Source: Psammoneis japonica (taxonomy: Eukaryota). From it: a stretch of 64,000 bases of DNA. The notes under the pieces are model-generated. The model saw only the letters and a list, made by a program, of their open reading frames with translations, had not been told where the DNA came from and did not search any database. A program made the position numbers and the translations under genes. Shown here piece after piece: positions 4,201 through 57,249 of the stretch. How positions within the stretch are numbered: the first letter of the stretch is position 1; every line of letters begins with the position of its first letter. The stretch covers positions 310,001 through 374,000 of the forward strand of contig QPGO01000031.1 in NCBI GenBank assembly GCA_008632985.1. Direction: 5' to 3'.

Positions 4201-4619
4201 TGTCATTTTTTTCTGTGAATGGTTGAAGATGAGTTGCTGCCCTGAGACAGCTCCTGCAAGTGAAAATTCATCAACAAAATGAACAAAGTGGGTGCACCAA
4301 AAATGAGTGTCATGAAGGTGACACATTTTCTGCAGCCAGCACATGTTTTCCTCATTTGAAAACTTTTCAGTTGTGAAGCAATTCTCTCCTGTGAATGTGT
4401 GAATGTTCCTTGTCAAATGTCTGCTGTGGATGACCTGAGTGGCTTTGTTTTGGGACAAGGCTTCTCCAATTCAAGATGATGATGCTGTGCAAATGCAGCC
4501 TGCTGGGGGTGTTGCACATCCCATGTCCACATGATGCAGGCCCTGCAAACATGTTCATTGCCCCCCACCATTTGCAGCAAGAGTGCAGTTTTTTTGTTCC
4601 CCCACTGTGGCCTGCCACC

Positions 4620-7600: not shown

Positions 7601-9660
7601 CAGGCATGGACAACCCTGTCAATGCCTGACACTGCAGTTCATTGGGTGCACCGTGTTGCCAGATGCAACAAGACCAAAAACAGCATCACTTTCCATGGCA
7701 AATCAGGCAACCTCCTCAACAATGCAAATTCTGAAAAAAAGATGAGCATCAGGAGGATTCAAACTCACAGCCATTACTTCCAGAGGATGTTGAAGATGAC
7801 AACTCCATTTGTGGGTCAGCTGACAATGACCATGATGGCAAAACTCCAGACATTTCTCTGGACCACCCACACAGTCATGGCATGCATGGCCACCAAGACC
7901 CTGGTCAATCCACAAGACACCCCCAAAAAATGGACTTGGTGCAGGAGTGGACCCACCAAGACACCAGCAAGACTGCAGGAATGGACCACAACAATGATGC
8001 CCATGATGAAAGCACAGGAATGGAAGACAGTCAAGACCAGATGCTCTGGATGATGTCAGGGAACAAGCCACGGCTGATGCTGACATTGCTCAAGAATGTG
8101 CCACAGATGCCAGCAACAGCAAGCCAGATGACAACAATGCAATTAAGAAGGGCATGGACAAGAAGCATGGTGAGAGAACCAGATCATGCTGCCTGCACCA
8201 ATGGAAGCCAAGTCATGCAACTGCCTTCACTTGGATCTCCTCAATGTTGGCTGCACACAGGGCCCAATGAAGAAGTTCCTCAAGGTGTTTGGCTCAAAGA
8301 GCGGGGGGCAGTCATGAGGAAAGAAGCAGAGCAACTGGAGGTCATGAATGTCCCAAAGGCTGTGAATGCTGACATGTTGACTGCATGATGCAAGAAGAGA
8401 AAGGAGCTGTGACATCTCATGTTTCTCAAACAAATGTTGTGGTCTGATCAAGGGACGGGGATGTGTCAATGTGCTGCATCCTCAAGAAGATCTGCACATC
8501 ATGCAAGGAAAACACATCCACCCCATCAACCATGCACACTGGCACAAATGAAGGAGGGACATGGCAACAGCAGATTTGCCAGGGTTCTTCAGGCAAACTG
8601 ACCAAGAAGGTGACATGCACCTTCATCCAAAAGGCACCATGATGCAGCTCAATCATGAAAAATGCACCAAACACATGGCACACAAGAAAGAACAAAGGAA
8701 AGTGCTGTGTCCACAGCTCTTGAAGGCCCCACATGATGGAAATGGTGATGGGGGAACACTGGCATGGAAGAAACTGCCCAGGATCCTCAAGAGCTGGGGA
8801 TTTGCCTTCTCATTGACAAGAAACAGCGCGCCATTCTTTGGCATGTGGGTGACCCAAAACTGTCCCATGTTCAACCAGAGGTGGTGACCAGCATCAGCAA
8901 GAGTCTCAAGTGCAAATGCACAATGCACTTTGGGCTCACTGTCACTTGGGGAACCTGCACAAACACCTTGGAGTGATGATCAACTGCAGTGACAAAAGAA
9001 AAGTGAAGTTGAGTGTGCTCCAATGCACCAACAATGTGTCAGAATGATGAGAGCACCATTGCGCTGGCAAAGAATGGTCAGATGTTCAGCACCAAGCATG
9101 CCAAGCTCATTGATGTTTGGTGATTTTCATGACTTCAAGGGTGACTTAACAGTCAGGGGCTGTCCAACCAAGGCACACTTGCCAATCATTCCATGAAACC
9201 ACTGAGGGGATTGCTGCTCATGAAGGTCAAAACCAAATCACAAGTGAGAACAACAATGCCCCATTTGAAGACACAGGCTGCTGCAGGAGTGTGTTGGGGT
9301 GCAAGGAGTGTGCACACCTGGAGGCCACAAAAAAAGCAATGGGAGGCATGGCAGAGCCAGCCCAGTGTCCACAACCAAAGAGTTGGGTGAGACACACTCA
9401 AGAAGAAGCAATGCTGAATGTGGCACAACATGTGGAGCTGCAGCTGGAACTGAAAACAAAAACAAAAGCAGCAAGAGTGCTCTTGGCATCAGGCAAAATG
9501 GCAAGATTGGCGAGGTGAGCAAGTGAGAAAGGTTGGTGGAATCAGCTCACTTCAAACAGCTGTTGATTTTGCCCCCCTTCAAAACACACTGATTCTCTCA
9601 ATGGGAGATTTGTGATTTTATGGATCAAAACCCAAAGAGTGGGTGTCATTGTTTCATTGG
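4620..9660 (+). mobile_element. Degenerate Ty1/copia (diatom CoDi-like) LTR retrotransposon
   Basis: Diverged direct repeats at ~4620-4980 and ~9292-9640, the latter preceded by caggagtg|tgttg. Integrase remnants EHLAEVEHHVWTIKGRC and HCHLEFGQHVQLHEEHD. RT remnants ATADLPGFF and AILWHVGDPKLSHV (cf. WHVDDLKISH). Order is IN then RT. Confidence 0.85.
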
Positions 9661-11100
9661 CCATGGATCAAACATTCATTTGTGAGTGGGCAACAAGTGA
9701 CACAAGGCATTTTTCTTGCCTGTTGTCACTGTCTGTCTGCTGAGAGCCAAAAGAGCTGTCATCGTCACACACACCATTGCCTGCACTGAGTCACTGATGA
9801 CAAGGCAAAGGCAGTGACATGTGAAAAGGTCCAGCAATCTGCTGGTTCAAGAGCAACAGGCAGTCTTGACAATGATCTGAAGTTGGAAAAAGTCTTCAAG
9901 GTGCCGCTCAGTGTTGACCAATGATCAACACAAAAGAGACATGTTGCAGCCAGCTGGCACTCTCCCCTTTGTGGGACAGGCTCTAACCCAGCTGTGTTGC
10001 AGAAACTCTGGACCAAAATCTGAAAAGGAAAAAAACACACAAGTCAGCCCAAAGCCAATCCCAAGCCAAGCACTGCTGGGAAGAAACATCAGCAGCTTGT
10101 GTTGCTTGCTCATCAAGAGGGGCAGGGGAGAGGAGCACTCTCTTTTGCTTCTGCTGTCCTGGTCACCTGCAAGCAGGCACACACATTTTCTGCTCATGTT
10201 GCTGGATTTGCTCTTGCTGCAATCTTGCATGCATTTGTGAATGTGATGACACTTCCCATCAGTTTGCCATCTTCTTGCTGCACTTTCTCTCTCTCTCTCT
10301 GCCTTGTGCATCTCTTTTTCACACATCTGGGCCAAGTGCCAGTGGGCAGCAGGCTCCAACACTTGAATTCATTGTCCACTGGAATGTCCACAAAGAGTTG
10401 CAGGACAAGTTAAAGTGCTTTGATCTGGGTGAAGTAGAGAGAAAAGACAAGTTTGACAAAAAAGGAGAAAGAGCTTGCCTGGGTTTCTGCCCTCATTCCT
10501 CATTTGAGAGGTGGCTGAGCACCCCCCAACAGCATTTCATTTCTCTTGGTTTCTCTGATGCAGTGCTGCCCTTTCCAGGAAAAGACACTTTTTGCTGCAC
10601 CACTTCCATGATGAACAAGTTTCTGCAGGTTTGCCACCCACCATGTCATTTTGAGGGCTGTGAGGGAACCACCCTTCTGCCTCTGCACTCTGCGCATGTC
10701 ACGCAGCAACACACAGCATGCTGCTGCTGCACCTCATTCAATGTTGCATGACTGGCAACTGTCACATGACATCATGCAACAGCCAGCCATGAATGTAAAG
10801 ACAATTGGCAGCAAAATGCTGGTGTGTTTGCATTGAAAGCTCTACTTGACCTTTGAGCATTGTGCACCCACAAACAAATGTTGCATCTCTCTGTCATGCT
10901 GCACACACCAGCCAAGGCTGCACCCTCCTCCTCCTCCTCCAAACCCACACAATGGAAGCAGCCATTCTTGCCTTGTGACACACCTGCAGCACTCCTCCCC
11001 CCAGGCTAATCTCTGGATGTGCTTGCATTCACAGATCACAGCCACAAGAAGGATCCCTGGTTAGTGCGTGCTGCAGGCAGATTTTTCATGTGCCAGCTCT
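9660..11100. other. TpA/CpG-depleted degenerate sequence, possibly an older retroelement (continuing at 4240-4620) into which the copia inserted
   Basis: Same composition as the neighbouring copia, with only faint pol-like peptide traces on the minus strand. Confidence 0.3.
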
Positions 11101-11246: not shown

Positions 11247-12251
11247 TTATCCAACGTATCGGCAGTCTGGATCATGATGCAGTTCAGTGACCCCATGTGC
11301 ATATCGATTTGTGTTGAATTCGAGTAGCTCCTTAAAATAACATTGCCGACTGAACCCCAACCAATCAATTAAATGGTTTAACTGACTGGCATTCTTCAAC
11401 CAATTGGAACTATTTAATAGCAAAGCTCTGTCGCCGAGGAGGTCGGCGAGAGTTTCCATTTTCTCGTTGAGAAATGTTAGTAATTCTTCACTTCCCCGTT
11501 TGATGCGTTTGAACGATTTCTTCTGCGAGACAGATTGTTCTGTCACATTACCCCGGATATTAATGACGAATCGTGCACATGGAAACATTTCTACAATCCA
11601 GTCTGCCATTTCGCCAATATCCTTTCCCCGCACATCATTAAGAAAGCGGATCGTTTTAAAGCCAACAATCGTGTCGGCGTCTTCTTCCATGATGGCGCCT
11701 GCTTTCGTGAGATTAGGAGGATTGATAGTTTCCATCATACTCTGTGCAACACAGCTATATGCCCCCTCTGGGACTGGAGCATGTCCCCACGCATTTCTTC
11801 TCGATGCCGCTCGCTTAAAATTTTTATTCTTCCGAATGTTGTCAATCATTTTTCGGATGGCTTTTAGTTGGTCATTGTTTTCGCCCGCCATACGTACTCC
11901 AGGCAAACTGTCAAGCATATATGTGAGAGTGGTTGATGCGGAACGACCTGTCGCCAGGATAATTAAGAATCGTCTTCGACATGGTCTGCACAGAGCACTA
12001 TCGAGGCATGATGTATCGGGGCACCACGCGGAATGAGCGTAATCTGTGACATTCCTGTCTGCGCTTCTTCCGGGTAAAGGCTCCATCACCGTTGAAGTTC
12101 TATTTTTTGTACGAATGGTCGATGCTGAGCTACTACCCTGATGCAGTCCCCGTAAGTAAACATTCATTGACAATCCAAACAACGTGGATACGGTCAGAAC
12201 GGGTACCACGATGGCGAGGCATGTTCTGTAACCAGTGCTTGTTTTCCTCAT
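11247..12251 (-). CDS. Type II membrane sulfotransferase-like P-loop protein (intact copy)
   Basis: 334-aa ORF with an N-terminal TM helix, ATGRSASTTL (PAPS-binding-loop-like), GFKTIRF and ARFVINIR. Normal Tyr and TpA content. Confidence 0.8.
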   Translation of the reverse strand: MRKTSTGYRTCLAIVVPVLTVSTLFGLSMNVYLRGLHQGSSSASTIRTKNRTSTVMEPLPGRSADRNVTDYAHSAWCPDTSCLDSALCRPCRRRFLIILATGRSASTTLTYMLDSLPGVRMAGENNDQLKAIRKMIDNIRKNKNFKRAASRRNAWGHAPVPEGAYSCVAQSMMETINPPNLTKAGAIMEEDADTIVGFKTIRFLNDVRGKDIGEMADWIVEMFPCARFVINIRGNVTEQSVSQKKSFKRIKRGSEELLTFLNEKMETLADLLGDRALLLNSSNWLKNASQLNHLIDWLGFSRQCYFKELLEFNTNRYAHGVTELHHDPDCRYVG

Positions 12252-12767
12252 TAGACTTTCTAGTTTCAGCGGTAATTTCTTTCGTTCTCTTTCGAGGTTG
12301 TGACCGGCCTTTATCCGTTTGGGCCTTGTCGAGGTGGTCAGTTGTCAGTACCGTAGGCCCCTTGTTCTTTTCGGGCTTGATTTGCTTCCTTCTGAGTGAT
12401 TTTGTGAGACGAGCGTTGGAATGTTTCATACGTCCTTCATGTACGTAGGTTTTAGTTTCATGCGTTGACATAATTTCGGTCCCGCCTGTCCGTATGTACG
12501 GTAGTGTCCGCGAGGGATTTTTCATTTTTCGATTTTTTCAAGACACATCATAAATCATAGCCTTACCTCATAGGTACCGGTAGCACAGGTGACACAGCGG
12601 GAGATAGACGAGATAGATCGAAGGTGACATGTTACAGTACGTCCGGTGGGCACTCGGCACTCGGCATCCATTGAAGAACCGACCTAAGCCCTAAGCGAGA
12701 GATTGGCTCTCGTCTTTCTTGCTCCTGATCCCAAGGACTCGAGTTCACGCTTCACATGTAACAAAGC

Positions 12768-19451: not shown

Positions 19452-20899
19452 GACTGAAATCGAAATTCGCGACTTGTCTGTGCACGAAATACGCGATCAC
19501 TGTTCAGACACGGACAAGAAAAAGTGGGACCTGCGGTCGGTTCGGGATTGCTCAGGTGCTGTTGTATGAGACTGTCTCTCGTCAAAACAATGGCAGATTT
19601 CCAAAAAGTGCCACGCTGATGATGAGTCCGCGAGTAAACACGGTTACACTCCGCTTATACACTCCACGTCGTAACCGGTATTGCCGGAAACTCCACGCAC
19701 TTCAGAATCGAGCTGAGTTGACAGGATCGCAAATTGAGCCAGAACAACACCAATCAGCACCAGAACCGATAGCGACTATTGTATAATGACAGAGGGCGCT
19801 CTTATTGTAAACTGGTGTACAGCAGCTGTCTTTGTGTTGTTGTTGGTCAACAAACAACGTTGGTATGACAAGTAAGAAGTGATAGCTGCGTATTGCTTCT
19901 GCACACGCAACAACCCAACAGCACGTTAGTCGTTTGAGCTTTGTGGGAAATTTGTCATGCGCGTACCCACGTTTTGTTTATGCGCACATGCCAAAGACGT
20001 TATTTTGACAGTAAATTTCGATTTTGCTTAGCGTAACGGTTATTTGAACGTACAAACCGAAAATTTGAAACAAAATGATGTATCTACAAATCTAAATAAA
20101 ACGAATCATCTTTGAGGTTCAAAAAATGAAAATCAGCTGACAAGCGGATGAGTGGTATGTACCGTCGTGTGACGCTACGTGAGTTTGATGTTGATAGTCA
20201 TGTCCCGGCTGACTAAAATCGATAAGTGTTCATGTTATTCATACTCTTAGATGATAAAAAGGTTATATTTAAGTCCTATATTGCCCTAACCGTACACTCT
20301 GAGACAACCAAAATTTCATCTCAACGGCTGTTTTCATTCATGGTGGACAAACTTTTTTGTATTCTACAAAAATGGAGAAGTATATTCCGATGTAAAAGTT
20401 ATCGTTGTGGGTTCGACGCATATGAAGATATTTTTCAGTGTGTAAAAACATATCGACTGAAATTTTGTTATTGCCTACTGTATCAAATCTGTGTAGGGCC
20501 CTAGAGTAGATGTTCCAACGGTTCGTTTTGACCTGTACAGTACGGACGCCGAGCAGACTTCACGCAGACTGATCGCGCGCTCTCGCTCGCTCGCGCAAAC
20601 AGCTCATGTCCCACCCCGTGAAAGAGGTGCAATAGCCGTACCGTAGGCCCGGTACATTGTCTGTTCTTCAATCCGCCACGGTAAATACATGCCACGACTG
20701 ACGTAAGATCCCAGGCGCGGAGACAATTTTTTCCCGAGCGTGGATTTTTGGTTTTGGAGATGATGCGCAGCCGACCCACAATCCGCCTTGTTTGAGCCAT
20801 GCTCCATCGTTTTCGTTCATTAAAGATACGGACATTGCTTTTGGGAGATCTTGTTGTTGGGTGAGGCCCTTGGTTTGGCGAGAAACGGAGTTGTCATTG

Positions 20900-22260
20900 T
20901 GCAGAGTTCAAGTTTTTCTGCCATTTTTGCACAACAAAACCCACAATCCGATGTTTGTTCATTCATTTCACCTCCTCTGTTCAATGTCATTGCTTTCATC
21001 AACTTGCCACAGTTAAAAAAGACACACCATGTCTTTTGGGCATGATGTGGGTGGGGGCTCTGGCGAGAAACACCGGTCGCACTCGTGTGTGGTCTCGCAT
21101 CACAGCCATTTGTGATTGTCGCTGACCCATGCTTTGATGTTTGTTCATTCATTTCGTCTCTTCAATCAAACTTCTTTGATTGAACCTTTGATTTGTGGGT
21201 GCAAAAACATCATTCTCTCTTGGATTTGCTTTCAGTGGGAGCTGTGAAGAGAGCAAGAATCATCCATGCCAACGACGACATGCACCGATGCCTCTCCTCA
21301 CTTTGGGAGTTCCGAGAATGCATTTTCCCCATTTGTCCAATCTGTTGGACACCAATTGAGTCACAAAATAGAGTGGTGATGCCACACACATTTTTGCATT
21401 GTCTGAAGCTGTTGTTTCCTCTCGTTTTCATTGGCAGCATCACATGCTCCTTGGCTGTCGTGTGCTCATGAGTCGAGTGAAGACTGGAATTCTCATTTTG
21501 TTCAATGCCAGGGCATTCACTGGAAGAATCATGAGTGGAGAAGTTGCTTGATGAGCTGCAAGTGCTTTTGATTTCAACATTGATGAAAGGACCCCGACTC
21601 CATTTGTCAGCACTGGCACTCACATGAACGGCATCGGTGCTTGGTGCTTTCCTCAGTGGATGTGTCAACAATGGCCTTTGCTTGGCATTTCTTGGCAGGT
21701 CTGTTGCACTTCCACTGAAAGCAAATCCAAGAGAGGAAAATCTTTTTGCATCTGTGAGGTAAAGATTTGATCAAAGAAGTGTGAGCAAAGAGACGAAATG
21801 AATGAAAAACAAACAAAGCATGGGTCAGCGACAATCACAAACAGCTGTGACACGAGACCACACGAGTGTGACCAACGTCACTCACCACAGATCAAACACA
21901 CAGCATGCACAAGACAGGGGGATGCTTTTTGCATCCACAATGAAGAGATGCCAGCAATGGCGTGCAGCAGCAGAGGAGGTGCATTGAACGAGTGCACATC
22001 AAAGCATGGGTCGCGACAATTTCCCATTTTGTGGTGTTTCCTGTCAATGTGACAGTGCAGCACATCTTGCCACAGATCAAACAGACAGCATGCCCAAGAC
22101 ATGGGACACCTTTCATGACTTTGTTGAGTTGATGCAAGCCACGGGTGTCAACAGAGGAGGCAATGTGAACAAACAAACATCAGAGCATGGGTTTTTGACA
22201 GCAGGCGAATGTGGGTGAGTCAGAAAAATGCAAAAAAACACCACTCAAATCAAAACTTTG
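20900..22260. repeat. Large imperfect inverted repeat (foldback-like) built from ~190-bp units, TpA-depleted
   Basis: 21075-21275 is the reverse complement of ~21680-21875. ~20930-21040 matches the reverse complement of ~22085-22200. ~21885-22015 repeats directly at ~22070-22195. Confidence 0.75.
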
Positions 22261-23535
22261 AGGAGGAATTGCCACACAGTGTCCTTCTGCAGGGGACAAG
22301 AAAGCCTGCCACACCCCAATTCCTCCTCAATTGTCAACATTGACGACCTCGGAACAGCACACTCATCATGGTCGATGGCTTTTTTTTTTTCCACACAAAA
22401 AGCACGGAGAGAACGTGGATGACGGACAAGCAAAAAGCAAAAATGTTTAGTTGAATTGTTCCTTTCACACAGAACTTTCACGGAGTCGTCCGAGCATGAC
22501 TGCAAACTGACGATGGAGTTGCGCTCGCTTGCTGGCACAGCAGCTTGTGTTGCTTGAGGTGACAGACAACTGCAAATGGAGGCTTTACAAGCTGCAGACA
22601 GTGCCCCAAGTGTTCCATCTTCATTGTGGCTTTTTTGATGTGAGTTGCTGCTGAGGACAGAGGGAGATGACAGCTCCCTTGGCAGGAGCCTTTTTTCTCT
22701 TGTTTTCTTGAAGCAGCAGCACTGCCTTTTGCTGGCTTTGAGTTTGCATGCACTGCCCACCCTGTGGAAAAAGTTTTTTGTCATTCTCTTTTCTGCCTTG
22801 TTTTGTCACCTCCTCTCATGTGTTGTCAGAGCAGGCATGGCGCACCACCAATGGCACTGAGGAGGCAGCTCTCTTCTCGTGCACCGCTCCGCTGCTCGAG
22901 GCGCGACACAGAAGCTCTCAAACAAGTTTTTTGCCAAAAAGGTCACAGGCATGGATCCTCTGGTGGGGCTGTTGGTCTCCAAATGCAGACATTGCAACGG
23001 GTTCTTGGTGCCCCCAGCCGAGAGAAGTGTTGCTTTTCGACTTTGTGTGTGGAACAGGTCAAGAGGCAGGTGCTGTTGTCCTCTGTTGTTTGCGCGTGCC
23101 TGCGCTTTGAAATTCGATCTGTGCAAATTTCGCGCATGGCGTGCCGCCTTGATCAGGCTCTCCGGAGCCTGGGGGTTGGGGCCTCGGTGAGCGCCGGCCA
23201 CCGCGTGCATCAGCACCAAAACCTGCGCAGGCCCTTTCTGCTTGGGGGCAGGACATCATTCAATTATGGACGATGAAAGAACATTTGTTGATGACTTTTC
23301 AGTCACGATCAAAAAATGTCCGACAGTTTCACGTGACCCCTGACACTTGAGTGATCCGATGACGCGACGTTAAATGTTGTGAGACAACAAAAGCAGCGGC
23401 TTGACCGGCTTTTGGCCTTTCTTCTGGTGCATTTTTCACTGGGGGTCTACACGGGAGGATGGAAAAAATTGAAAACAAAAAATGCAGGGGCTGTGGAGTT
23501 GCAAAAACACAAAAAACACTCGACCTCCTTCAACC

Positions 23536-25647
23536 TCACACATCTTCCGATGGGAGAGGTTGGATGCGACGCGATCTTTTCTTCGGTCCTTGGGAGCGGT
23601 CGACCTTGCGGCGCTTGGCATCACTAGATTGAGCCTTGGAAGCATCGCACAATTGTCTGAGTGACACAGCACCTCTCTCCTCGTCAATCAGCCTTGCAGA
23701 TTCCTGGAGTGCAGCGGCACGGTCTGAAAAACCACGCACTCGCTCAGACCGTTTCAGAATCAAGCCATGCAGGTGTGAACGACGACTGAGCTGCACAGTG
23801 ACCCCACCCTGCCAATTCTTTTTGCTCACTCCTTTGTGCTGTTCCAACTGAAACTCCAGGTGCTCCTCCAACAATTTGGTCATTGTCTTTGGCATTTCTT
23901 TTGGAAAGTGTGGTTGAGCAGCACCTGACGGCGGCGGAGGCAGATGCTGAACGATGCGCGAGCGAGTTGGATTCGAGTCCAATGCGGCACGTGTCTGAAT
24001 CGCATTCCGACCACTCACAGCCATTCTGATGCTCTGCATCTGCTCACGTTGCTGCTGTTGTTGCTGCTGGTTTTGCCTCAGAATGATGTCAGTGAAATTT
24101 TGAACTTCTGCTGACAGTCGATCCATTTTCCCAACCAGAACCTGTGTGTCGGTGCGAACCGAGGAGAAAGCTGTCTGCGCAGCAATGTTCAGATTTTGAA
24201 TCTCGTCTTCTTCTGCAGTGTCCATGTCAGCCAACTCTTGAAGCCTGTCCCTTGCCCACTCAATGCACCTGCCGCCAAAAACACGAACCAACAGACGGGA
24301 CACTTCGTGCTGCGGATGCTCCGTGACCCAGTGGATGCCGTCTTGGCACAGGACGCGAGCGAAAAAAGGTAAGGTCCCACATAAAAAGTTTGTGCCGCAT
24401 GGCCACTTACGACCAACATTGTGTTGCTGTTTCCATGCAGGCAGTCTTGGCCACATCATCTCTGCCAACTCAGCATCAGCAACGTTTGGTTTTCCGGGAA
24501 CTAGTTCGCCGAAGGATGTGTTGGTACGAGGGACGTAGTGAACCTTCTCCCCATGCAGCTTAGAGAACCCGGCGGCAATCAACTGCACTTGTGGAGGGAT
24601 CTCAGGCAAGTGTGAGACGTCAAGTGAATCTTTTCCATGTTTCGTCTGCTGCTCAACATTTTGCTTGGTCGCCCCGCCCATGTTGCTGGAATCGATGCCG
24701 GCGGTGCGAAGGTGAGTGCACTTTGCCCACGACGTCTTTGTTGCCCTGTACACCCGTTGGTGTGCCTTACGGTGCGTGTCTAATGTTTTCCAACCCACCA
24801 GTTCATGCTTGTGCCAGTCCGGGAAACCGTCATGTTGATGCATGAAGTGGATTTCCGCATCGCTGTGAAACCTGCAGGCAGCGACGGCGGCGTTCATGCC
24901 GGTTCCGCATCGCTTCCAGTCGCGGTGCCGCCACATGCCTGCAACTCTTTTTTTGTGGGAACCTCGTTTGCCTGTAAACCGTTGCTCAATCAGAGCTGTC
25001 ATTGGACGTGCGACCGATTCGTTTGGGTTGCCGGGGCCGTGAGTTTCGTCACAGTGAACATCCGCACAGCGTGTAAGTCGGAGCTGATCGCCTCGTATCA
25101 TGGTCTGGCTGCAGCTGGTCCATGACACTACCAAGTTCTTCCAAGCAGCAGATTGAATAATGTGATTCAATGTCTCATCCTCAGCAACACGAGACAGAGT
25201 GTCCGCAGGCAGCTTGTCATGAGCTGATGCAAACGCAGTGAGCAAATTTTGGGTGTGTCGCTCCTTGTGTGCCACCAGAGCGACGTCAACTGCCTCTGAT
25301 CTCACAACGAATTTTGGATTGGGAGGTTTGTGCTCCTCCCAAGATGAGTGATGCTGCAGTGACCAAATGACACGCTTGGCCGACTTCGGCGTGACGTCTC
25401 GTTTCGACACTGCCTCCAAGAAGTGCCGGTCGACCTGGTCTCGCGTCAAGTAAGGCGGCCCCGACAGAGCCGGCGATTCATCCACCCACCTTTTGCATGC
25501 ATTCCACTCAGTGACATGAGTGCCATCCACCTTGGGTGGTGTGATGGTTTGGGCCAACAAGTCTCCCATGGAGACCTGAGACGCCATCTTGGGTCTGTTC
25601 TGCTCATTGTGATAGCCTCGAGGGATCGTCTTTTGGGGTGCACCCAC
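23536..25647 (-). CDS. Crypton/Ndc10-like tyrosine-recombinase-fold protein with a GCR1_C-like C-terminus, copy 1 (hypermutated)
   Basis: Motifs RGDQLR, RHRDWKRC, THLRTAG, SHLPEIP...AAGF and HYVPR recall Crypton/Ndc10 domain II. Very few Tyr and excess His/Cys. Confidence 0.7.
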   Translation of the reverse strand: MGAPQKTIPRGYHNEQNRPKMASQVSMGDLLAQTITPPKVDGTHVTEWNACKRWVDESPALSGPPYLTRDQVDRHFLEAVSKRDVTPKSAKRVIWSLQHHSSWEEHKPPNPKFVVRSEAVDVALVAHKERHTQNLLTAFASAHDKLPADTLSRVAEDETLNHIIQSAAWKNLVVSWTSCSQTMIRGDQLRLTRCADVHCDETHGPGNPNESVARPMTALIEQRFTGKRGSHKKRVAGMWRHRDWKRCGTGMNAAVAACRFHSDAEIHFMHQHDGFPDWHKHELVGWKTLDTHRKAHQRVYRATKTSWAKCTHLRTAGIDSSNMGGATKQNVEQQTKHGKDSLDVSHLPEIPPQVQLIAAGFSKLHGEKVHYVPRTNTSFGELVPGKPNVADAELAEMMWPRLPAWKQQHNVGRKWPCGTNFLCGTLPFFARVLCQDGIHWVTEHPQHEVSRLLVRVFGGRCIEWARDRLQELADMDTAEEDEIQNLNIAAQTAFSSVRTDTQVLVGKMDRLSAEVQNFTDIILRQNQQQQQQQREQMQSIRMAVSGRNAIQTRAALDSNPTRSRIVQHLPPPPSGAAQPHFPKEMPKTMTKLLEEHLEFQLEQHKGVSKKNWQGGVTVQLSRRSHLHGLILKRSERVRGFSDRAAALQESARLIDEERGAVSLRQLCDASKAQSSDAKRRKVDRSQGPKKRSRRIQPLPSEDV

Positions 25648-26366
25648 CTCACTGTCAAAAGAAAAGAGGTTTTTGAAATCAAACGCTCACTTGTGGCGTT
25701 CGACAAGTGGAGTCGTTTCGAATCATGTTGACATTCGAGTGGGAAGAAAGAACATTTCGACAAGTGGATTTTGTGTCTTGTCCTGTTCTGAAGGTTCTTA
25801 TCTTCACTGACCACAGGCCCATCCGGGGTCCGGGAACCGGTTCTGGGGGTGGTTCCGGCGCCGGCCTCCTACGGGCAGGAACCACTGAGGACTCCCCCCG
25901 GTTAGCGCGGTTAACCCGTGACGTCAGGGGGAAGCGCGCCCCCCAATCAGCGGTGGTCATTCCTGTTAACTGGTGTCGCGCGACCAGGCTCTCCGGAGCC
26001 TGGGGGTCAGGGCCTCGGTGAGCGCCGGTTGCCGCGTGCATCAGCACCAAAACCTGCGCAGGCCCTTTCTACTTAGGGGCAGGACATCATTCAATTACAG
26101 ACGATGAAAGAACATTTGTTGATGACTTTTCAGTCACGATCAAAAAATGTCCGACAGTTTCACGTGACCCCTGACACTTGAGTGATCCGATGACGCGACG
26201 TTAAATGTTGTGAGACAACAAAAGCAGCGGCTTGACCGGCTTTTAGCCTTTCTTCTGGCACATTTTTCACTGGGGGTCTACACGGGAGGATGGAAAAAAT
26301 TGAAAACAAAAAATGCAGGGGCTGTAGAGTTACAAAAACACAAAAAACACTCGACCTCCTTCAACC

Positions 26367-28478
26367 TCACACATCTTCCGATGGGAGAGGTTGGATGCGA
26401 TGCGATCTTTTCTTCGGTCCTTGGGAGCGGTCGACCTTGCGGCGCTTGGTGTCACTAGATTGAGCCTTGGAAGCATCACACAATTGTCTGAGTGACACAG
26501 CACCTCTCTCCTCGTCAATCAGCCTTGCAGATTCCTGGAGCACAGCGGCACGGTCTGAAAAACCACGCACTCGCTCAGACCATTTCAGAATCAAGCCACA
26601 CAGGCATGAACGACGACTGAGCTGCACAGTGACCCCACCCTGCCAATTCTTTTTGCTCACTCCTTTGTGCTGTTCCAACTGAAACTCCAGGTGCTCCTCC
26701 AACAATTTGGTCATTGTCTTTGGCATTTCTTTTGGAAAGCATGGTTGAGTGGCACCTGACGGCGGCGGAGGCAGATGCTGAACGATGCGCGAGCGAGTTG
26801 GATTCGAATCCAATGCGGTGCGTGTCTGAATCGCATTCCGACTGCTCACAGCCATTCTGATGCTCTGCATCTGCTCACGTTGCTGCTGTTGTTGCTGCTG
26901 GTTTTGCCTCAGAACAATGTCAGTGAAATTTTGAACTTCTGCTGACAGTCGATCCATTTTCCCAACCAGAACCTGTGTGTCGGTACGAACCGAGGAGAAA
27001 GCTGTCTGCGCAGCAATGTTCAGATTTTGAATCTCGTCTTCTTCTGCAGTGTCCATGTCAGCCAACTCTTGAAGCCTGTCCCTTGCCCACTCAATGCACC
27101 TGCCGCCAAAAACACGAACCAACAGACGGGACACTTCGTGCTGCGGATGCTCCGTGACCCAGTGGACACCGTCTTGGCACAGGACGCGAGCGAAAAAAGG
27201 TGAGGTCCCACATAAAAAGTTTGTGCCGCATGGCCACTTACGACCAACATTGTGTTGCTGTTTCCATGCAGGCAGTCTTGGCCACATCATCTCTGCCAAC
27301 TCAGTGTCAGCAACGTTTGGTTTTCCGGGAACTAGTTCGCCGAAGGATGTGTTGGTACGAGGGACGTAGTGAACCTTCTCCCCATGCAGCTTAGAGAACC
27401 CGGCGGCAATCAACTGCACTTGTGGAGGGATCTCAGGCAAGTGTGAGACGTCAAGTGAATCTTTTCCATGTTTCGTCTGCTGCTCAACATTTTGCTTGGT
27501 CGCCCTGCCCATGTTGCTAGAATCGATGCCGGCGGTGCGAAGGTGAGTGCACTTTGCCCACGACGTCTTTGTTGCCCTGTGCACCCGTTGGTGTGCCTTA
27601 CGGTGCGTGTCCAATGTTTTCCAACCCACCAGTTCATGCTTGTGCCAGTCCGGGAAACCGTCATGTTGATGCATGAAGTGGATTTCCGCATCGCTGTGAA
27701 ACCTGCAGGCGGCGACGGCGGCGTTCATGCCGGTTCCGCATCGCTTCCAGTCGCGGTGCCGCCACATGCCTGCAACTCTTTTTTTGTGGGAACCTCGTTT
27801 GCCTGTGAACCGTTGCTCAATCAGAGCTGTCATTGGACGTGCGACCGATTCGTTTGGGTTGCTGGGGCCGTGAGTTTCGTCACAGTGAACATCCGCACAG
27901 CGTGTGAGTCGGAGCTGATCGCCTCGCATCATGGTCTGGCTGCAGCTGGTCCATGACACTGCCAAGTTCTTCCAAGCAGCAGATTGAACAATGTGATTCA
28001 ATGTCTCATCCTCAGCAACACGAGACAGAGTGTCCGCAGGCAGCTTGTCATGAGCTGACACAAACGCAGTGAGCAAATTTTGGGTGCATCGCTCCTTGTG
28101 TGCCACCAGAGCGACGTCAACTGCCTCTGATCTCACAACGAATTTTGGATTGGGAGGTTTGTGCTCCTCCCAAGATGAGTGATGCTGCAGTGACCAAATG
28201 ACACGCTTGGCCGACTTCGGCGTGACGTCTTGTTTCGACACTGCCTCCAAGAAGTGCCGGTCGACCTGGTCTCGCGTCAAGTAAGGCGGCCCCGACAGAG
28301 CCGGCGATTCATCCACCCACCTTTTGCATGCATTCCACTCAGTGACATGAGTGCCATCCACCTTGGGTGGTGTGATGGTTTGGGCCAACAAGTCTCCCAT
28401 GGAGACCTGAGACGCCATCTTGGGTCTGTTCTGCTCATTATGATAGCCTCGAGGGATCGTCTTTTGGGGTGCACCCAC
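26367..28478 (-). CDS. Crypton/Ndc10-like protein, copy 2 (hypermutated)
   Basis: Near-identical 703-aa ORF; the differences are transitions at TA, CG, CA or TG sites. Confidence 0.7.
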   Translation of the reverse strand: MGAPQKTIPRGYHNEQNRPKMASQVSMGDLLAQTITPPKVDGTHVTEWNACKRWVDESPALSGPPYLTRDQVDRHFLEAVSKQDVTPKSAKRVIWSLQHHSSWEEHKPPNPKFVVRSEAVDVALVAHKERCTQNLLTAFVSAHDKLPADTLSRVAEDETLNHIVQSAAWKNLAVSWTSCSQTMMRGDQLRLTRCADVHCDETHGPSNPNESVARPMTALIEQRFTGKRGSHKKRVAGMWRHRDWKRCGTGMNAAVAACRFHSDAEIHFMHQHDGFPDWHKHELVGWKTLDTHRKAHQRVHRATKTSWAKCTHLRTAGIDSSNMGRATKQNVEQQTKHGKDSLDVSHLPEIPPQVQLIAAGFSKLHGEKVHYVPRTNTSFGELVPGKPNVADTELAEMMWPRLPAWKQQHNVGRKWPCGTNFLCGTSPFFARVLCQDGVHWVTEHPQHEVSRLLVRVFGGRCIEWARDRLQELADMDTAEEDEIQNLNIAAQTAFSSVRTDTQVLVGKMDRLSAEVQNFTDIVLRQNQQQQQQQREQMQSIRMAVSSRNAIQTRTALDSNPTRSRIVQHLPPPPSGATQPCFPKEMPKTMTKLLEEHLEFQLEQHKGVSKKNWQGGVTVQLSRRSCLCGLILKWSERVRGFSDRAAVLQESARLIDEERGAVSLRQLCDASKAQSSDTKRRKVDRSQGPKKRSHRIQPLPSEDV

Positions 28479-28819
28479 CTTGCTATCAAAAGAAAAGAGG
28501 TTTTTGAAATCAAACGCTCACTTGTGGCGTTCGACAAGTGGAGTCGTTTCGAATCATGTTGACATTCGAGTGGGAAGAAAGAACATTTCGACAAGTGGAT
28601 TTTATGTCTTGTCCTGTTCTGAAGGTTCTTATCTTCACTAACCACAGGCCTATCCGGGGTCCGGGAACCGGTTCCGGGGGTGGTTCCGGCGCCGGCCTCC
28701 TACGGGCAGGAACCACTGAGGACTCCCCCCGGTTAGCGCGGTTAACCCGTGACGTCAGGGGGAAGCGCGCCCCCCAATCAGCGGTGGTTATTCCTGTTAA
28801 CCGGTGTCGCGCGACCTGA

Positions 28820-29668
28820 GGCTCGGTCTACAGGCGGTGAACCGCGCCGGATCGGATCGCCGGATCGGATCGCGTCAGAATTCCGTTAGTCGACAGGTGG
28901 AACCGGATCGGATCGCGGATCGGATTCGACATTTTGATGAGTCGCAAAACGACGTAAGTTTCAAGATTCCAAATTCTCAAGAACAACAAAGCACTGAAAT
29001 AGCGAACAACAGAGAGAGTGTGGCCATGATGCTTCACATCTTGTCATAACGAGACAATATGACGACAGAACTATGCTGTTATTACTGCTTTACATACTTA
29101 CTTGACCGCATCATTGAGCATCATTGTCACTCAGTGTTTGCAGCACGCTGAGGAAGAAAAAGCTATCACTTTTGCAATTCAGAAACTGACGCTATGTTTT
29201 CGTATTGAAATTTCGAATTACATAATAAATACTTGTTATTTTGCTTATTTAATGTTTCTCCAACAAATCTTTACGGCATTATCGGTTTGACAAGCTATTC
29301 TATTGCCATACGACCTTTTTCATCTCCATTTCAAGCATGGGAAGAGTAAGGCTGTAATGCTAAGGAAGTTCTGTGCCCTTATGGCTGAATGTTATGCCGC
29401 CCTGTATCATAATCGTGTGATGTTGCGCCATTGTCGTGATGACGGCACGGAATCTTCCAAATTCGATCCGACATCCGATCCGGATTTTCGGATCGGACGG
29501 TCTTCGGAGCAAAATATTTTACTCCGAAGACCGTCCGATCCGAGATGGCGGATCAGTCCCACGAAGGCCACGGATCGACTTTTTGACTCGATGGACTAAT
29601 ATTTTAATGGGTTATGAAGGAGTCGATCCGGCGATCCGATCCGGCTCGGTTCACCTGTAGACCGAGCC
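28820..29668. mobile_element. Non-autonomous PIF/Harbinger-type MITE
   Basis: ~45-bp TIRs GGCTCGGTCTACAGG...CCTGTAGACCGAGCC, a 3-bp TSD TGA (28817-19 and 29669-71), many subterminal CGGATC/GATCCG motifs and an AT-rich non-coding core. Confidence 0.85.
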
Positions 29669-34886: not shown

Positions 34887-37174
34887 ATGTCATCGAAACG
34901 CAACGCAAAGAACTCACCAGCTTCGATTGACATCCCGTGCAGTTCAAAAGTTCCGATTTCCATCAATGGGCGAAGCCTGACTCTCACCTGTCCTCATGGG
35001 GCTCGTATTGAAGTTGTAGCTCGCTTGGTCGGTGAGGAGGACGCCTTGTTGACTGCGGAATTCTCCTGTATCGATGACCCTTATGAGCTCCGTATCGTTC
35101 GCGATGCCGAGTCCGCCAACTCGACGCCAACACAGCGTTCGAGTTATGAAGTGCCAAACACCGGCTACAAGCCACAACGACGACTGAAAACGCGCATGCA
35201 GGACGGAGCGGGCATTCCCTCCGCTCAAGCCATTCCGCCAAGAACAAACACCGAGCATTCAAGAAACAGCGGCAATGACTCTCCTCTTGACGCTGTTCTC
35301 GTCCATGATCCTGATTCTGCTGATTCATTGGCGTCTGATCAAGCCATCGCCCCTGTTCCAGCCATTCCGCCACTAGTTCCCACCGTACATGCTGGAGAAA
35401 ATGACATTGCGACTCTTCCTGAAGCCGTTCCAGTAAGCGATGCTTGTGAATTGGATTCATTGGCGTCTGATACAACAAGTGAGAGGACAGTGGACTGGGA
35501 ATCTACTTCATACGAATCAAGCCTTGCACTCTCATCTTGTATGGACTCGAGGATCACCTATGGTCAGCACGGATGGGTACGCGTGCTTCGTGATGATAAC
35601 AGATTCCACTGGGAGGTCAATAACCCTCCCGAGAGGTTCGATATTTCCTCGGCCTTTGTGCGCAATCTCGAATTCAAGCCAGGCGACGATCCGAGAATCC
35701 GGGCAGGAATTATCAGCCTTGTACCTGCCAGCGAAGGAGCTGTGGACACCAAGATAAAGAATGTTGAAGGCCGTGACTTGGTATCATACTCTGACATTGT
35801 CCGAGCACAAATCAAAACCTTTGAAGAAAAGGCCCAGTGGTTCCAGGATACTTGCGCTCAGCTTTGTGTCGAGTGGAACGAAGGTCACGTGCGTATGAAC
35901 ATCCGTCGTGCATTCTTGTTGGGAGATTCCGTCGATGCCGTCATGAGTCTGAGTCGCAAGGATTTGCGCAAGTTGTGGAGATTTGAGTTTATTGGTGAGA
36001 TGGGTATTGATGCTGGTGGACTAGCCAGAGAATGGTTTCAGCTCGTTACAGAAGAAATCTTTGATCCTGACATGGGTCTTTGGCAATCCAGTGCGGTCAA
36101 CCAAATGTCCATGCAAGTCAATCCTGCTTCAGGTGAGTTCAGAAAGAAAATATCGTTTAGCTAGCTACTTCTGTCTTCTCTACACTCTAATGTACCTGTT
36201 TATTCTGCTTTTTTCCACAGAATTTTGTTGCGAGGACCACTTGGTGTACTATCGCTTCTTGGGTCGCGTTATGGGAAAGGCCCTCTTTGATCGCCAGTTG
36301 TGTTCGGGTCACATGGTGCAGTACATTTACAAGCACATGCTCGGCTGGCCCGTGACATTCGAAGATCTGAAAAGCGTGGACGAGGGATGTTACAACGAAC
36401 TTAAGCAGCTCCGAGATATGGAGGCAGCTGGTGAAGACTTGTCCATGATGTGTCTGGACTTTACGATCACAACCGAAGTTTTGGGAAAGAAGAAGGAGAT
36501 TGAGCTTATTCCTGGAGGAGCCGATGTTGCATTGGACAACGACAACTTTCCCGAGTACCTCGAGGCTTACCTTAAATACAAGTTGCTCAATGCTGTCAAA
36601 CCCCAGATCACTGAGTTGCTCTTGGGGTTCTTCGATGTCATTCCAGAGCCTCTTCTAACCATTTTCGACTTTGAGGAATTACAGTTGCTCATGTGCGGGC
36701 AACCCGAAATCGATATGGATGATTGGAAGACCCACACGGAGTACTCCGGCGAATACGATGGAGATCCAGACCATCCTGCCTGCCATTGGTTCTGGGAAGT
36801 TGTTACGGACTTTGATCACGAAATGAAGGCCCGTCTCCTTCAGTTTGTCACGGGAACTTCGGGTGTGCCGTCGCGAGGCTTTGGTGTGTTGCAGGGAAAC
36901 GACGGAAATATTCGAAAATTCACAGTGCACGGCGTTCCAGTTGGCGTCTGCCTTTACCCTCGCGCACAGTAAGTACTGTAGAGGAAATGGGGAGAGATTT
37001 CGTTCTCATGTTGATGCGACCTCTCGCCTAACTTTCACGCTTGATCTTTTGTTACGTCGTAGCACCTGCTTCAATCGGATTGATCTTCCAATGTATGAAT
37101 CTAAGGAGGAGCTGGAGAAGAAGTTGAGGCTTGCTGTTACGATGGCTTCGAAAGGCTTCGACATTGAGTACTAG
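34887..37174 (+). CDS. HECT-domain E3 ubiquitin ligase (NEDD4-like HECT), intact; introns 36133-36220 and 36969-37062
   Basis: DAGGLAREWF, YRFLGRVMGKALFD and LLQFVTGTS, plus the spliced catalytic PRAHTCFNRIDLP. Confidence 0.93.
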
Positions 37175-37969: not shown

Positions 37970-40150
37970 ATGACGCCACAACGAAAACCTTGGAGACGGA
38001 ACCTTGTGCTGAGATTGTTTGCGCAATTAAGGAGAGCATGCACCATGTGTTTCAAGAGACCTGACAACACTGTTGTGTTTCGGGTCACGACACCCGCCAG
38101 TGTGAAACCGGGTGAGGAATTCAAAGTCTGTGCCGGCATCAACATGATTGCTGTCAAATGTCCTTCTTCCTTGAGTGCAGGAGAAAGCTTCCAAATGAGG
38201 GTGCCACAGAAGCTTCTGTTGGATCCCCCGAATGTCCAAGCAATTGACGGAGACACCCACTCGGTGTCCATTCCCAAAGGCGTGTTGCCGGGACAACGTT
38301 TTCTTGCTTCGATCCGTGGACAGTGACATGTCCTGAAAATGCCACGCAAACTAAAGTGCATTTTCTGCCTTCAAAGTGTGACTCGCAGTTTTATGAAGTT
38401 GAGGTTCCAGAGGGAGTGGAGCCGGGAGAAAGGTTTCTCGCTTCGGCTGGTGGTGTCTGTGCACTGGTGACTTATCCCAAGAATGCATCTGCCGGCACAC
38501 GGGTGCGCTTTGTTGTGCCAAAAAGCGCCGGACAAATGATGGATGTAGAGGAAATGCCACCAGAATCCATTCAACTCTCCTGCCACAAGGCCGGTGGGTG
38601 GGCGCGCACAATTAGACTCTCGGATGTGAAATTTCAGTGGATCCGGGACAAGCACTTGTGCTTGAAAACGAAGGCCTGCGTTCGTAAAATCGAATGTGGG
38701 ATGGAAGACAATTCCGTTCTTCACACTGGAAGCTTGTGTCTTGCACCCATCAGCAAAGAAATGATTGACTCAAAGATTTGTGGGAGAGACGGCTGGGTCG
38801 TTGCCTCGCACGCGGACATTGCCAAAGTTCAAGGAAAACCGTTTGAAGAAAAGTGCCAATGGTTTCAAGACACCTGTGCACAGCCATGTGTCGAATTGAA
38901 CGAAGGGCACGTGCATGTGAATGTCTCCCGTGCATTTTTGTTACAAGACTCGGTAGATGCAGCAATGAGTCTGAGTCGCAAAGACTTTTGCAAGTTGTGG
39001 AGATTTGAGTTCATTGGTGAAATGAATGTTGAAGCCGGCGGACTGACAAGAGATTGGTTTCAACTCGTTTCGGAAGACATGTTTGATCCTGACATGGGTC
39101 TTTGGCAATTCAGTGAGGCCAATCGCAACCTCATGCAAATGATTCCAACTTCGGGTGAGTTCACATGAGAGGCATGCGCAGCTCCTGAGTTCTTCTTTGT
39201 TGGCACTTATCCAGACAACTCTTCGACCTTTTTCTTCATCAATGTTAGAGTTCTGCTGCAAGGACAAGTTGGTTCACTGCAGATTCTTGGATCGTGTCAT
39301 GGGAAAGGCCCTTTTTGATCGCCAGCTGTGTTCCAGCCACATGACGCCGCACATGCACAAGCACGTGCTCGGCTGGCCCGTGGCATTTGAAGACCTTAAA
39401 TTCGTGGACAAGGAGCATTGCACCAGTCTCAAGCAGCTGGAGACGGTGAAGAGTGGCGAAGACTTGTCAAAGCTTTGTCTGGACTTTACGACCACGACAG
39501 AAGTTTCGGGAAAGACGAAAGAAATTGAGTTGATTCCTGGAGGTGCCGACGTTGAATTGAACAATGACAACTTCCCCGAACACCTTGAGGCCTGTCTCAA
39601 ACACAAGCTGCTCGACAACATCAAGCCCCAGCTCTTTGAGTTGCTCTTCGGGTTCTATGATGTAGTGCCCGAGCCTCTCTTTGCCGTTTTCGACTTTGAG
39701 GAATTGGAGCTGCTCATGTGTGGGCAGCCCGAAATCGACATGGATCAATGGAAGACCCGCGCAGAGCACAAATGGCGAGCACCGTGGAAATCCTGACCAT
39801 CCTGTTTGCCGTTGGTTTTGGGAGGTTGTGACCGATTTCGAGTGCGAAACGAAAGTCAGCCTCCTTAAGTTTGTCGCAGGAAAGTCAAGCACCCCGACAC
39901 TAGCTTGCAGGAAAACGATGGAAACATTCGAAAATTCACAGTGCACGGCGTTCCAGTTTCCAGTTGGTGTCTGCCTTCACCCTCGTGCACAGTGAGTTTG
40001 GTCGATGTAAAAGCAGCGCTCCTTTGCCTCTACGCTTGTGACCTCTTTTCTAACTGCTGCACTGACTGTGCTTGATTTCTTTTTGCATCCAACATGCATA
40101 ATGTACAGTGGCACCAGCTTCAATCAGACAGAGCATGTACGAATGAAATC
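37970..40150 (+). pseudogene. Tandem HECT E3 ligase paralog, frameshifted and Tyr>His/Cys hypermutated
   Basis: Collinear with the intact gene and has the same intron positions. Frameshifts at ~38325, ~39770 and ~39900. EHLEACLKHKL vs EYLEAYLKYKL. Confidence 0.9.
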
Positions 40151-57247: not shown

Positions 57248-57249
57248 AC

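Follow-up and report, generated by a model that had tools for sequence, protein, structure and literature searches.

A head-to-tail pair of Crypton-type transposon units lies in a 64,000-nucleotide stretch of contig QPGO01000031.1 (assembly GCA_008632985.1, positions 310,001 to 374,000; the whole stretch is hereafter termed the window, and positions are counted from its first letter). Comparison of the two units with each other, with further members of the family, and with host-gene duplicates in the window revealed that TpA was the ancestral dinucleotide at sites now occupied by TpG or CpA. Very likely, this Crypton-type dimer, situated in silenced, repeat-rich, diatom-like DNA, has been the target of a local hypermutation of TpA to TpG or CpA.

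Differences between the twin units

The units formed an exact head-to-tail dimer at 23151-28812 with a period of 2831 bp, and alignment of 23151-25991 with 25982-28824 gave 97.5% identity with 69 mismatches and one gap. All of the substitutions were transitions (38 A/G and 31 C/T, with no transversions) and 66 of the 69 fell at positions with a pyrimidine-purine dinucleotide (YpR) in both copies, a class comprising 48.6% of positions overall (P = 1.6e-17). This agreed with the first-pass annotation, made from the letters and reading frames alone, that the copies differ almost only at TA, TG, CA, and CG sites. TA was present in both copies at 18 sites and in one copy only at 21 (8 kept by copy A and 13 by copy B, for totals of 26 and 31 remaining TpA, respectively), reciprocal CA/TG states occurred at 18 sites, and CG was present in both copies at 160 sites and in one copy only at nine. 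The reciprocal residues previously listed (ERHT/ERCT, QPHF/QPCF, and SHLHG/SCLCG) were all recovered in the two 703-residue open reading frames (ORFs), as were the pairs attributed to TA retention in one copy (VYR/VHR, MIR/MMR, LVV/LAV, TLP/TSP, and IIQ/IVQ). Codon differences comprised 23 nonsynonymous versus 16 synonymous changes, with no clear constraint.

Ancestral state of the changed sites

Contigs for comparison came from the only sequencing runs found, those of one sample (X1-X3, one study), and differed from the window in 185 rows, of which 40 were listed and those inside the dimer all lay on copy A. The runs listed included no RNA, and X3 gave no contig on the window. The contigs matching the unique flanks had a word depth of 58-69 with zero or one difference to the window and those on the element a word depth of 350-820 (run X1), such that several family copies, perhaps 5-13 as a rough estimate from depth rather than a count, appear to share those words. 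At all 21 listed places where the higher-depth contigs differed from copy A, the contigs had TA and copy A had CA or TG. Four of these places were reciprocal sites (23619/20, 23710/11, 23768/9, and 23774/5), being all of the reciprocal sites covered, and at the other 17 both twins carried the same derived CA or TG. Translation of the contigs restored tyrosine (Tyr) at codons 194, 296, 346, 370, 423, 604, 625, 627, and 667, where the twins encode histidine (His) or cysteine (Cys). Among the contigs of single-copy depth, the states at 23492-23495 and 24147-24148 revealed one or more additional mutated copies, located elsewhere, in which the outcomes were different again.

The protein family pointed in the same direction. 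An alignment of 36 sequences, composed of the two twin proteins and 34 relatives, contained ten columns in which Tyr was conserved (at least 60% of the 27-32 relatives having a residue there), and the twins had Tyr at one of these, His in both copies at six, Cys in both at one, and His in one with Cys in the other at two. In the same alignment, tryptophan was kept by the twins at ten of ten conserved columns and His at seven of eight, and the Tyr content of the twin proteins was 0.4-0.6% compared to 3.3% in 25 full-length relatives. Relatives were read at the protein level, as residues rather than codons: the residue predicted from an ancestral TA occurred in 17, 26, 22, and 16 relatives at the reciprocal codons 131, 438, 625, and 627, compared to 1, 2, 0, and 0 with the residue predicted from CG, i.e., 81 versus 3 outgroup residues over these four well-conserved codons. 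Across the 13 nonsynonymous reciprocal sites, the TA-predicted residue won nine, lost two, and tied two. For sites with TA in one copy, the relatives supported ancestral Ile184 (8/28), Tyr300 (13/31), and Leu426 (27/31), and for sites with CG in one copy they supported CG as ancestral at codons 83 (16/27 Arg), 325 (27/30 Gly), 633 (12/30 Arg), and 693 (8/8 Arg). A metagenome scan for DNA of the relatives matched 335 pattern stretches, none of which encoded a relative.

Contigs, relatives, loss rates, and host-gene duplicates thus agreed as four lines of evidence that TA, and not CG, was ancestral. The polarity proposed in the first-pass annotation was upheld, and the reverse polarity that it had named as its counter-case (CG at the reciprocal sites and TA derived) was the opposite of what the contigs and relatives displayed.

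Rate, patchiness, and timing of TpA loss

Loss of TpA per copy since the duplication was 0.50-0.62 at polarised sites, compared to a CpG loss per copy of 0.027 calculated from the 160 intact sites and the nine lost in one copy. The resulting ratio of about 26-36 bears out the earlier suggestion that TpA loss outpaces CpG decay. The number of reciprocal sites expected from CpG was 0.06 versus the 18 observed (P = 1e-38). Sites were hit once: TA faced CG at no site in the twins, at one of 27 in the HECT pair, and at none of 33 in the sulfotransferase pair described below.

The 21 sites with TA in a single copy were ordered along the unit as BBBBBBABAAAAAAABBBBBB (each letter giving the copy that keeps TA), i.e., five runs (shuffle P = 0.0045). 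As the copy that keeps TA changes in blocks, the process operates patchwise, over roughly 0.5-1 kb at a time. The choice of strand along each copy gave no significant runs (P = 0.27 and 0.60).

Derived sites with the same state in both twins outnumbered reciprocal sites 17:4 according to the contigs (P = 0.007 versus 1:1) and 7:2 at the conserved Tyr columns. Consequently, most TpA loss predates the duplication, and the copy that gave rise to the dimer had been mutated beforehand, with His at column 346 already in place. Both copies were hit further after the duplication, as seen from the 18 reciprocal and 21 single-copy sites. The earlier claim that mutation acted after duplication therefore holds for these sites, but not for the larger part of the loss.

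Depleted domains and silent duplicates of host genes

Division of the window into 128 bins of 500 bp gave 60 normal bins and five with an intermediate observed-to-expected ratio (o/e) of TA (0.25-0.4) and normal CpG. The remaining 63 bins had a TA o/e below 0.25 and were grouped in five sharp-edged blocks with normal neighbouring DNA. Among these low-TA bins, 18 had a CpG o/e of at least 0.6, six had intermediate CpG (24 of 128 bins thus combining low TA with a CpG o/e of at least 0.3), and 39 had lost both dinucleotides. No bin among the 128 had lost CpG while TA was normal, and hence TpA is lost first, followed by CpG within these same domains. The order of loss suggested from the twins accordingly applies to the whole window. 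The twins lie inside one depleted domain extending from 20751 to about 28800, the right edge of which coincides with the end of copy B.

The most advanced state was found in the blocks at 4001-10000 and 50001-60000, with a TA o/e of 0.03, a CG o/e of 0.06-0.11, and TG and CA at about 1.8-2.1. The first-pass annotation had contrasted CpG-rich twins with old copia elements lacking both dinucleotides; the contrast itself stood (CG o/e 0.81-0.82 versus 0.06-0.11), but the copia label is unverified. A search of the old blocks against Pfam, using 33 ORF pieces and six frame translations with stops as X, found no family. Direct repeats resembling long terminal repeats (LTRs) at 4631-4960 and 9303-9620 share 71% identity and frame a 4.3-kb block with a TA o/e of 0.03 and a CG o/e of 0.06; the divergence of this pair is unusable as an age. 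TGA made up 94-95% of stop triplets in the depleted blocks (350/371 in 4001-10000 and 541/572 in 50001-60000) versus 51-57% in normal DNA.

The genes in the window are of ordinary eukaryotic kinds, encoding MatE, HECT, NIF phosphatase, PP-loop ATPase, and sulfotransferase proteins, and two of them have depleted duplicates. The 3' part of the HECT ubiquitin-ligase gene (35814-36974, TA o/e 0.48) has a downstream duplicate with 75% identity (38835-39997, TA o/e 0.13, CG o/e 0.78) in which 25 of 27 TA sites of the gene have become CA or TG, with one change in reverse and symmetric CpG changes (21 versus 19). This duplicate constitutes a second case of the early stage, and it involves no transposon. 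Three sulfotransferase paralogues were identified at 11247-12344, 3490-4359, and 1333-2085. Compared to the gene at 11398-12255 (TA o/e 0.65), the copy at 3490-4359, which lies in a depleted block (TA o/e 0.05, CG o/e 0.20), has lost 32 of 33 TA and 41 of 42 CG sites, and the third copy at 1333-2085, in normal DNA, displayed symmetric differences.

Since silent duplicates of two host genes show the same loss, the process is not tied to transposons. Neither is repetition as such the trigger, because TA-intact family sequence of higher depth coexists with the twins and the working HECT and sulfotransferase genes were spared. The decay of CpG in the same domains suggests silent, methylated chromatin as the target; diatom transposons are CpG-methylated, in Phaeodactylum in a DNMT5a-dependent manner (PMC9998398). 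The sulfotransferase also bears on the host. All 11 organism-named relatives among the 120 listed were from diatoms at 37-45% identity (Nitzschia, Seminavis, Chaetoceros, Epithemia, and MMETSP records beginning "Thala" and "Gra/Gram"), and the best unnamed relatives had 51-56% identity. Judged by this one gene family, the host would be a diatom or a close relative of diatoms and not Bigelowiella.

The Crypton-type element and its dimer

Crypton transposons were reportedly described by Goodwin et al. in 2003. As characterised in a later survey, they carry a single recombinase gene and terminal direct repeats of 4-6 bp, and lack both reverse transcriptase and terminal inverted repeats (Kojima and Jurka, 2011; PMC3212892). 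The active CryptonF-1_cRei of Chlamydomonas ends in, and targets, a 5-bp word (PMC9977147). Each 2831-bp unit of the dimer contained one 703-residue ORF and no reverse transcriptase or other transposase (Table 1). The left end of the dimer joins flanking DNA ending in GCCTT to GATCAGGCTC, the junction between the copies joins CGCGC to GACCAGGCTC, and the right end joins CGCGC to GACCTGAGGC. The repeat scan reported no inverted repeats inside the units, and the ends were as in Cryptons, i.e., without terminal inverted or long direct repeats and with the short GAYC direct repeat, a word that is a candidate crossover site.

Table 1. Features of the Crypton-type dimer and its left flank (window positions; o/e, observed-to-expected ratio)
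Feature	Position	Strand	Description
Crypton-type unit, copy A	23151..25981	-	2831 bp; TA o/e 0.17, CG o/e 0.82
Crypton-type unit, copy B	25982..28812	-	2831 bp; abuts copy A without spacer; TA o/e 0.20, CG o/e 0.81
GAYC 4-bp terminal direct repeat	23151..23154; 25982-25985; 28813-28816	+ (first position)	GATC; GACC; GACC (the last just past copy B)
ORF A	23536..25647	-	703 aa from listed GTG; ATG at residue 21; stop TGA; 4 Tyr codons left
ORF B	26367..28478	-	703 aa; 23 residues differ from ORF A; stop TGA; 3 Tyr codons left
Codon 346 of ORF A	24610..24612	-	CAC (His); Tyr in 30/30 relatives; TAC in higher-depth contig
Codon 346 of ORF B	27441..27443	-	CAC (His)
Left flank	20751..23150		Same TA-depleted domain; TA o/e 0.04, CG o/e 0.49; 162-nt inverted repeat

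The two window proteins themselves matched no Pfam family. A search of a representative library of 1.84 billion proteins returned 418 relatives at E ≤ 0.001, the best with 36-48% identity over long stretches, and 21 of the 36 aligned family members matched NDC10_II, a recombinase-like domain of Cryptons and Ndc10, and four matched Phage_int_SAM_4, a phage-integrase SAM-like domain (Pfam). An AlphaFold model of ORF A, with a mean predicted local distance difference test score (pLDDT) of 80.2, displayed a tyrosine-recombinase fold whose top Foldseek matches were Ndc10 (4aco, E 6.6e-5), Cre, Flp, Tn1549 integrase, and XerH. A sequence search of solved structures gave no match with the single protein, and the family profile retrieved nothing beyond haemagglutinin, a chance coiled-coil match (E 0.1). 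No GCR1_C domain was detected. Based on the sequence and the predicted model, the twins are assigned as a Crypton-type element with a tyrosine recombinase only. They resemble Cryptons in the single recombinase ORF with its predicted fold, the NDC10_II similarity of the relatives, the ends without terminal inverted or long terminal repeats, the 4-bp direct repeat, and the presence of several genomic copies; they differ in the His at the presumed catalytic Tyr and the undetected GCR1_C. The gene content suggests movement via an excised circle without an RNA intermediate, and the dimer would fit such a circle integrating into a resident copy.

Column 346 is presumed to hold the catalytic Tyr, nine residues after the conserved His337, by analogy with the motif spacing of known recombinases. 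The H337-x8-Y346 spacing equals that from His/Trp to the nucleophilic Tyr in Cre, lambda Int, and XerD. The R-H-R-Y tetrad, in which the two arginines and the first histidine could be mapped only loosely, was not intact in the twins, as both copies have His at this family-invariant Tyr column. Both are presumably dead members unable to move themselves, in a family that as such has the Tyr. As the founding copy already had His at the presumed catalytic position, the duplication was presumably made by recombinase from intact family copies or by host recombination.

The Crypton probably inserted into an older element, represented by the left flank. The inverted repeat of this flank pairs 21080-21241 with 21709-21870 at 81% complementarity, and the part at 22381-23183 was found at single-copy depth in the run. 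At 23136, A in the window corresponds to G in the single-copy contig of the run (CA versus CG), a difference outside the rule.

Comparison with known hypermutation systems

The same signature has been reported in mutation-accumulation lines of Bigelowiella natans. Of 231 mutations in an integrated giant-virus region and a virophage region, all but one (230) changed A to G or T to C, and the authors placed these changes on TpA; the rate was about 6e-7 per site per generation, and only some lines were affected (Mettrop et al., bioRxiv 10.64898/2026.01.13.699255). TpA-poor coding sequences of B. natans were also enriched for reverse transcriptase and DDE transposase domains, and an ADAT2-like adenine deaminase was proposed but untested there (bioRxiv 10.64898/2026.01.13.699255). 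Both systems share near-exclusive A to G and T to C change on TpA with TpG or CpA as product, local domains, patchiness in time and space, and long-term TpA depletion with a gain of CpA and TpG. They differ in lineage, as B. natans is a rhizarian (chlorarachniophyte) alga and the host-gene relatives here are diatom proteins, and in targets, which are single-copy viral insertions in B. natans and a transposon dimer, other repeats, and silent host-gene duplicates in the window. Depletion was far deeper in the window (TA o/e 0.03 versus 0.45 in a B. natans viral region) and affected about half of it, compared to 124 clusters in about 95 Mb. The text of the preprint does not mention CpG or Crypton, whereas in the window TpA loss is followed by loss of CpG within shared domains. 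Finally, mutations were measured directly in the B. natans lines and are read from the sequence pattern in the window. Searches of open-access and bioRxiv papers for the TpA signature outside B. natans, and specifically in diatoms, yielded nothing beyond fungal repeat-induced point mutation (RIP), with the opposite change, and unrelated matter.

RIP is likewise a local, transition-only, and dinucleotide-specific hypermutation that ruins transposons and produces a strong skew, and tandem duplicates are its typical substrates. However, RIP turns CpA into TpA and enriches TA, whereas TpA is destroyed here (TA o/e 0.03-0.20); RIP strikes each partner of a duplicated pair, whereas here the silent copies were struck and the working genes for HECT and sulfotransferase spared; and several TA-intact family copies appear to coexist with the mutated ones. 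C to T mutation, whether RIP-like or driven by CpG alone, was rejected in view of the TA states of the contigs and the comparison of host genes with their duplicates. Methyl-CpG decay matches the CG to TG/CA changes in the same domains, including the nine twin sites and the nearly CpG-free older blocks, but is a minor and slower component that cannot yield the reciprocal sites or the TpA loss. The APOBEC3 and ADAR enzymes acting on animal retroviruses and retroelements also leave deaminase-type, context-specific clusters of transitions that disable invaders, but they act on single-stranded cDNA or RNA and on one strand, whereas a DNA element and genomic duplicates were affected here on both strands.

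Proposed process and alternative explanations

A Crypton-type head-to-tail dimer inside a silenced, repeat-rich stretch would be the target of local DNA hypermutation that turns TpA into TpG or CpA, i.e., an A to G change on either strand, and each site would be struck once since the first change abolishes the TpA context. Most TpA of the founding copy, including the presumed catalytic Tyr codon, would have gone before the duplication, and subsequent independent hits in both copies would give the 18 opposite outcomes (e.g., His versus Cys from Tyr codons) and the 21 single hits. CpG, most likely methylated, would decay in the same domain about 26-36 times more slowly, so that CpG remains, and the end state seen in the older blocks would hold almost no TA or CG and twice the expected TG and CA. 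The pattern of change, its direction, its confinement to domains, and the relative rates are established by the comparisons above. The process appears to act on chromosomal DNA in place and its targeting to follow silent chromatin rather than repetition; by analogy with the B. natans proposal, the chemistry may be adenine deamination in DNA.

It is very improbable that all CA/TG differences arose from CpG by deamination of methylated C on opposite strands in the two copies, with TA derived via C to T at CpA/TpG as in fungal RIP. All 69 differences being transitions, CA/TG pairs alone formally allow a CG ancestor, CpG decay is real at the four codons where CG is ancestral, and the outgroups fit the CG-predicted residue at codons 577 and 646; yet the intact CpG sites leave almost no double hits to be expected, the covered reciprocal sites have TA in the contigs, the family has Tyr at positions occupied by His or Cys in the twins, TA in functional host genes faces CA/TG in their silent duplicates at 57 sites versus three in reverse, and the depleted blocks are the opposite of a RIP-type TA excess. 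Still harder to credit is ADAR-like A to I editing of RNA fixed by reverse transcription, or selection on codons or dinucleotides. ADAR prefers U before the edited A (as discussed in bioRxiv 10.64898/2026.01.13.699255) and the old blocks may be retroelements, but the element consists of a single recombinase-fold ORF without reverse transcriptase, depletion extends to the flank and to the non-coding DNA of the unit, 12-22 TG and 9-14 CA outcomes per copy indicate that both strands were struck, DNA-level host-gene duplicates are affected too, and the nonsynonymous and synonymous counts give no sign of selection shaping the pattern.

Two further alternatives concern the dimer and the chemistry rather than the direction of change. 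The dimer could be an assembly artefact in which two alleles or dispersed paralogues were stitched head to tail, and the differences would then separate loci or haplotypes instead of neighbours that diverged in place. In favour of this improbable explanation, several family copies were present in the run, the best run contained only 43% of the sampled words of the dimer, and no listed contig spanned the stretch or bridged the A/B junction under a 31-letter rule. Against it, the end-to-start junction is seamless and has the same 4-bp GAYC as both outer junctions, and an assembler cannot invent a junction without reads containing it. A contig of depth 192 over 25971, with at least 35 letters on each side, reaches about 25 letters past the junction, which is below the bridging rule and a hint only. 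In addition, the flank and single-copy variant contigs have similar depths (58-83) with no sign of a half-depth haplotype, and a circular form recombining into a resident copy would give head-to-tail multimers, as may be extrapolated from the Crypton model (PMC3212892; PMC9977147). Even an artefact would leave the polarity and the hypermutation standing, and only divergence after duplication and in place would fall. Less easily set aside, though on balance unlikely, is a different chemistry in which the thymine of TpA is modified (e.g., to 5-hydroxymethyluracil or further by a TET/JBP-type enzyme) and miscopied or misrepaired as C, without adenine deamination. TpA is self-complementary, and T to C is hence indistinguishable from A to G on the other strand; moreover, the base 3' of the changed A showed no preference among 112 polarised events (chi-square P = 0.53), and nothing favours a deaminase-like context. 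In dinoflagellate DNA, 5-hydroxymethyluracil is enriched at TpA. The sequence itself does not discriminate between the chemistries; the only published proposal for the signature is the ADAT2-like adenine deaminase, itself untested (bioRxiv 10.64898/2026.01.13.699255).

Several observations weigh against TpA hypermutation as set out above, or narrow its base. The single-copy TpA losses gave 16 TG versus 5 CA on the plus strand (23239-25958), with the ORF on the minus strand, the 13 sites lost in copy A being divided into 11 TG and 2 CA (binomial P = 0.02) and the 8 lost in copy B into 5 and 3. Three substitutions (23153, 23198, and 23977) fell outside YpR, such that the process is not perfectly exclusive, and at 23646-23647 a CpG was gained in copy A relative to the higher-depth contig and copy B, a site counted among those with CG in one copy. 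One uniform rate did not fit the site classes (18 TA/TA sites versus about 11 expected and 21 singles versus about 35), which points to site or regional heterogeneity. The few outgroup matches at codons 577 and 646 favoured the CG-predicted residue (0 versus 1 and 0 versus 2), although codon 646 has TA in the contig. The DNA-level check reached only four of the 18 sites with reciprocal states, copy number can be gauged only roughly, and not counted, from contig depth, and run X1 may be the sample behind the window assembly, supporting base calls and copy variants but representing no independent strain. The lack of a listed contig across the A/B junction belongs here as well.

Implications

TpA hypermutation is already in print (2026) for another lineage, and the window adds a second, together with the coupling of TpA loss to CpG decay and a natural, clean record of the process under way. 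The twins and the host-gene duplicates provide a polarised and internally controlled record with one hit per site, both strands struck, patchiness, and about 30 times the CpG rate. The occurrence of the signature, in far more advanced form, in this diatom-like genome suggests that it is no one-species curiosity, and the genetic tools existing in diatoms make the mechanism more testable. A tentative extension is that a chromatin-targeted defence by DNA editing operates in diatoms as in Bigelowiella, converting all TpA of silenced DNA to TpG or CpA on top of CpG methylation. Such a defence would act alike on transposons, integrated viruses, and silent gene duplicates, and its presence in two distant branches of the stramenopile-alveolate-rhizarian (SAR) group would suggest an old and overlooked eukaryotic genome defence with a dedicated enzyme modifying adenine (or thymine) in DNA. 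The twin Crypton would then be a natural reporter of a still-running process with patches of roughly 0.5-1 kb and one hit per site.

For genome analysis, transposon dating fails in such DNA, as hypermutation accounts for almost all of the 2.4% divergence between the twins. Nor do intact frames of 703 codons attest to function: by codon logic, the loss of TpA removes TAA and TAG, or converts TAA to TGA, and never gives rise to a new stop. Affected genes also escape annotation, their proteins being Tyr-poor, rich in His and Cys, and below Pfam thresholds.

Related sequences in public databases

The closest database relatives of the twin proteins were P0038 (64% identity) and P0008 (48%), both over fragments and both encoded on one public contig of 3160 nt. 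They were the two most Tyr-poor among 172 proteins compared (0.6% Tyr each), and His plus Cys made up 10.6% of P0038. Their source is probably a genome subject to this process as well, and their composition suggests another hypermutated Crypton of this or a related organism. Many other metagenomic relatives, including P0161, P0164, P0166, and P0167, were found on contigs of about 2.8-3.0 kb, near the length of the 2831-bp unit, which may be whole elements or circular forms assembled alone.

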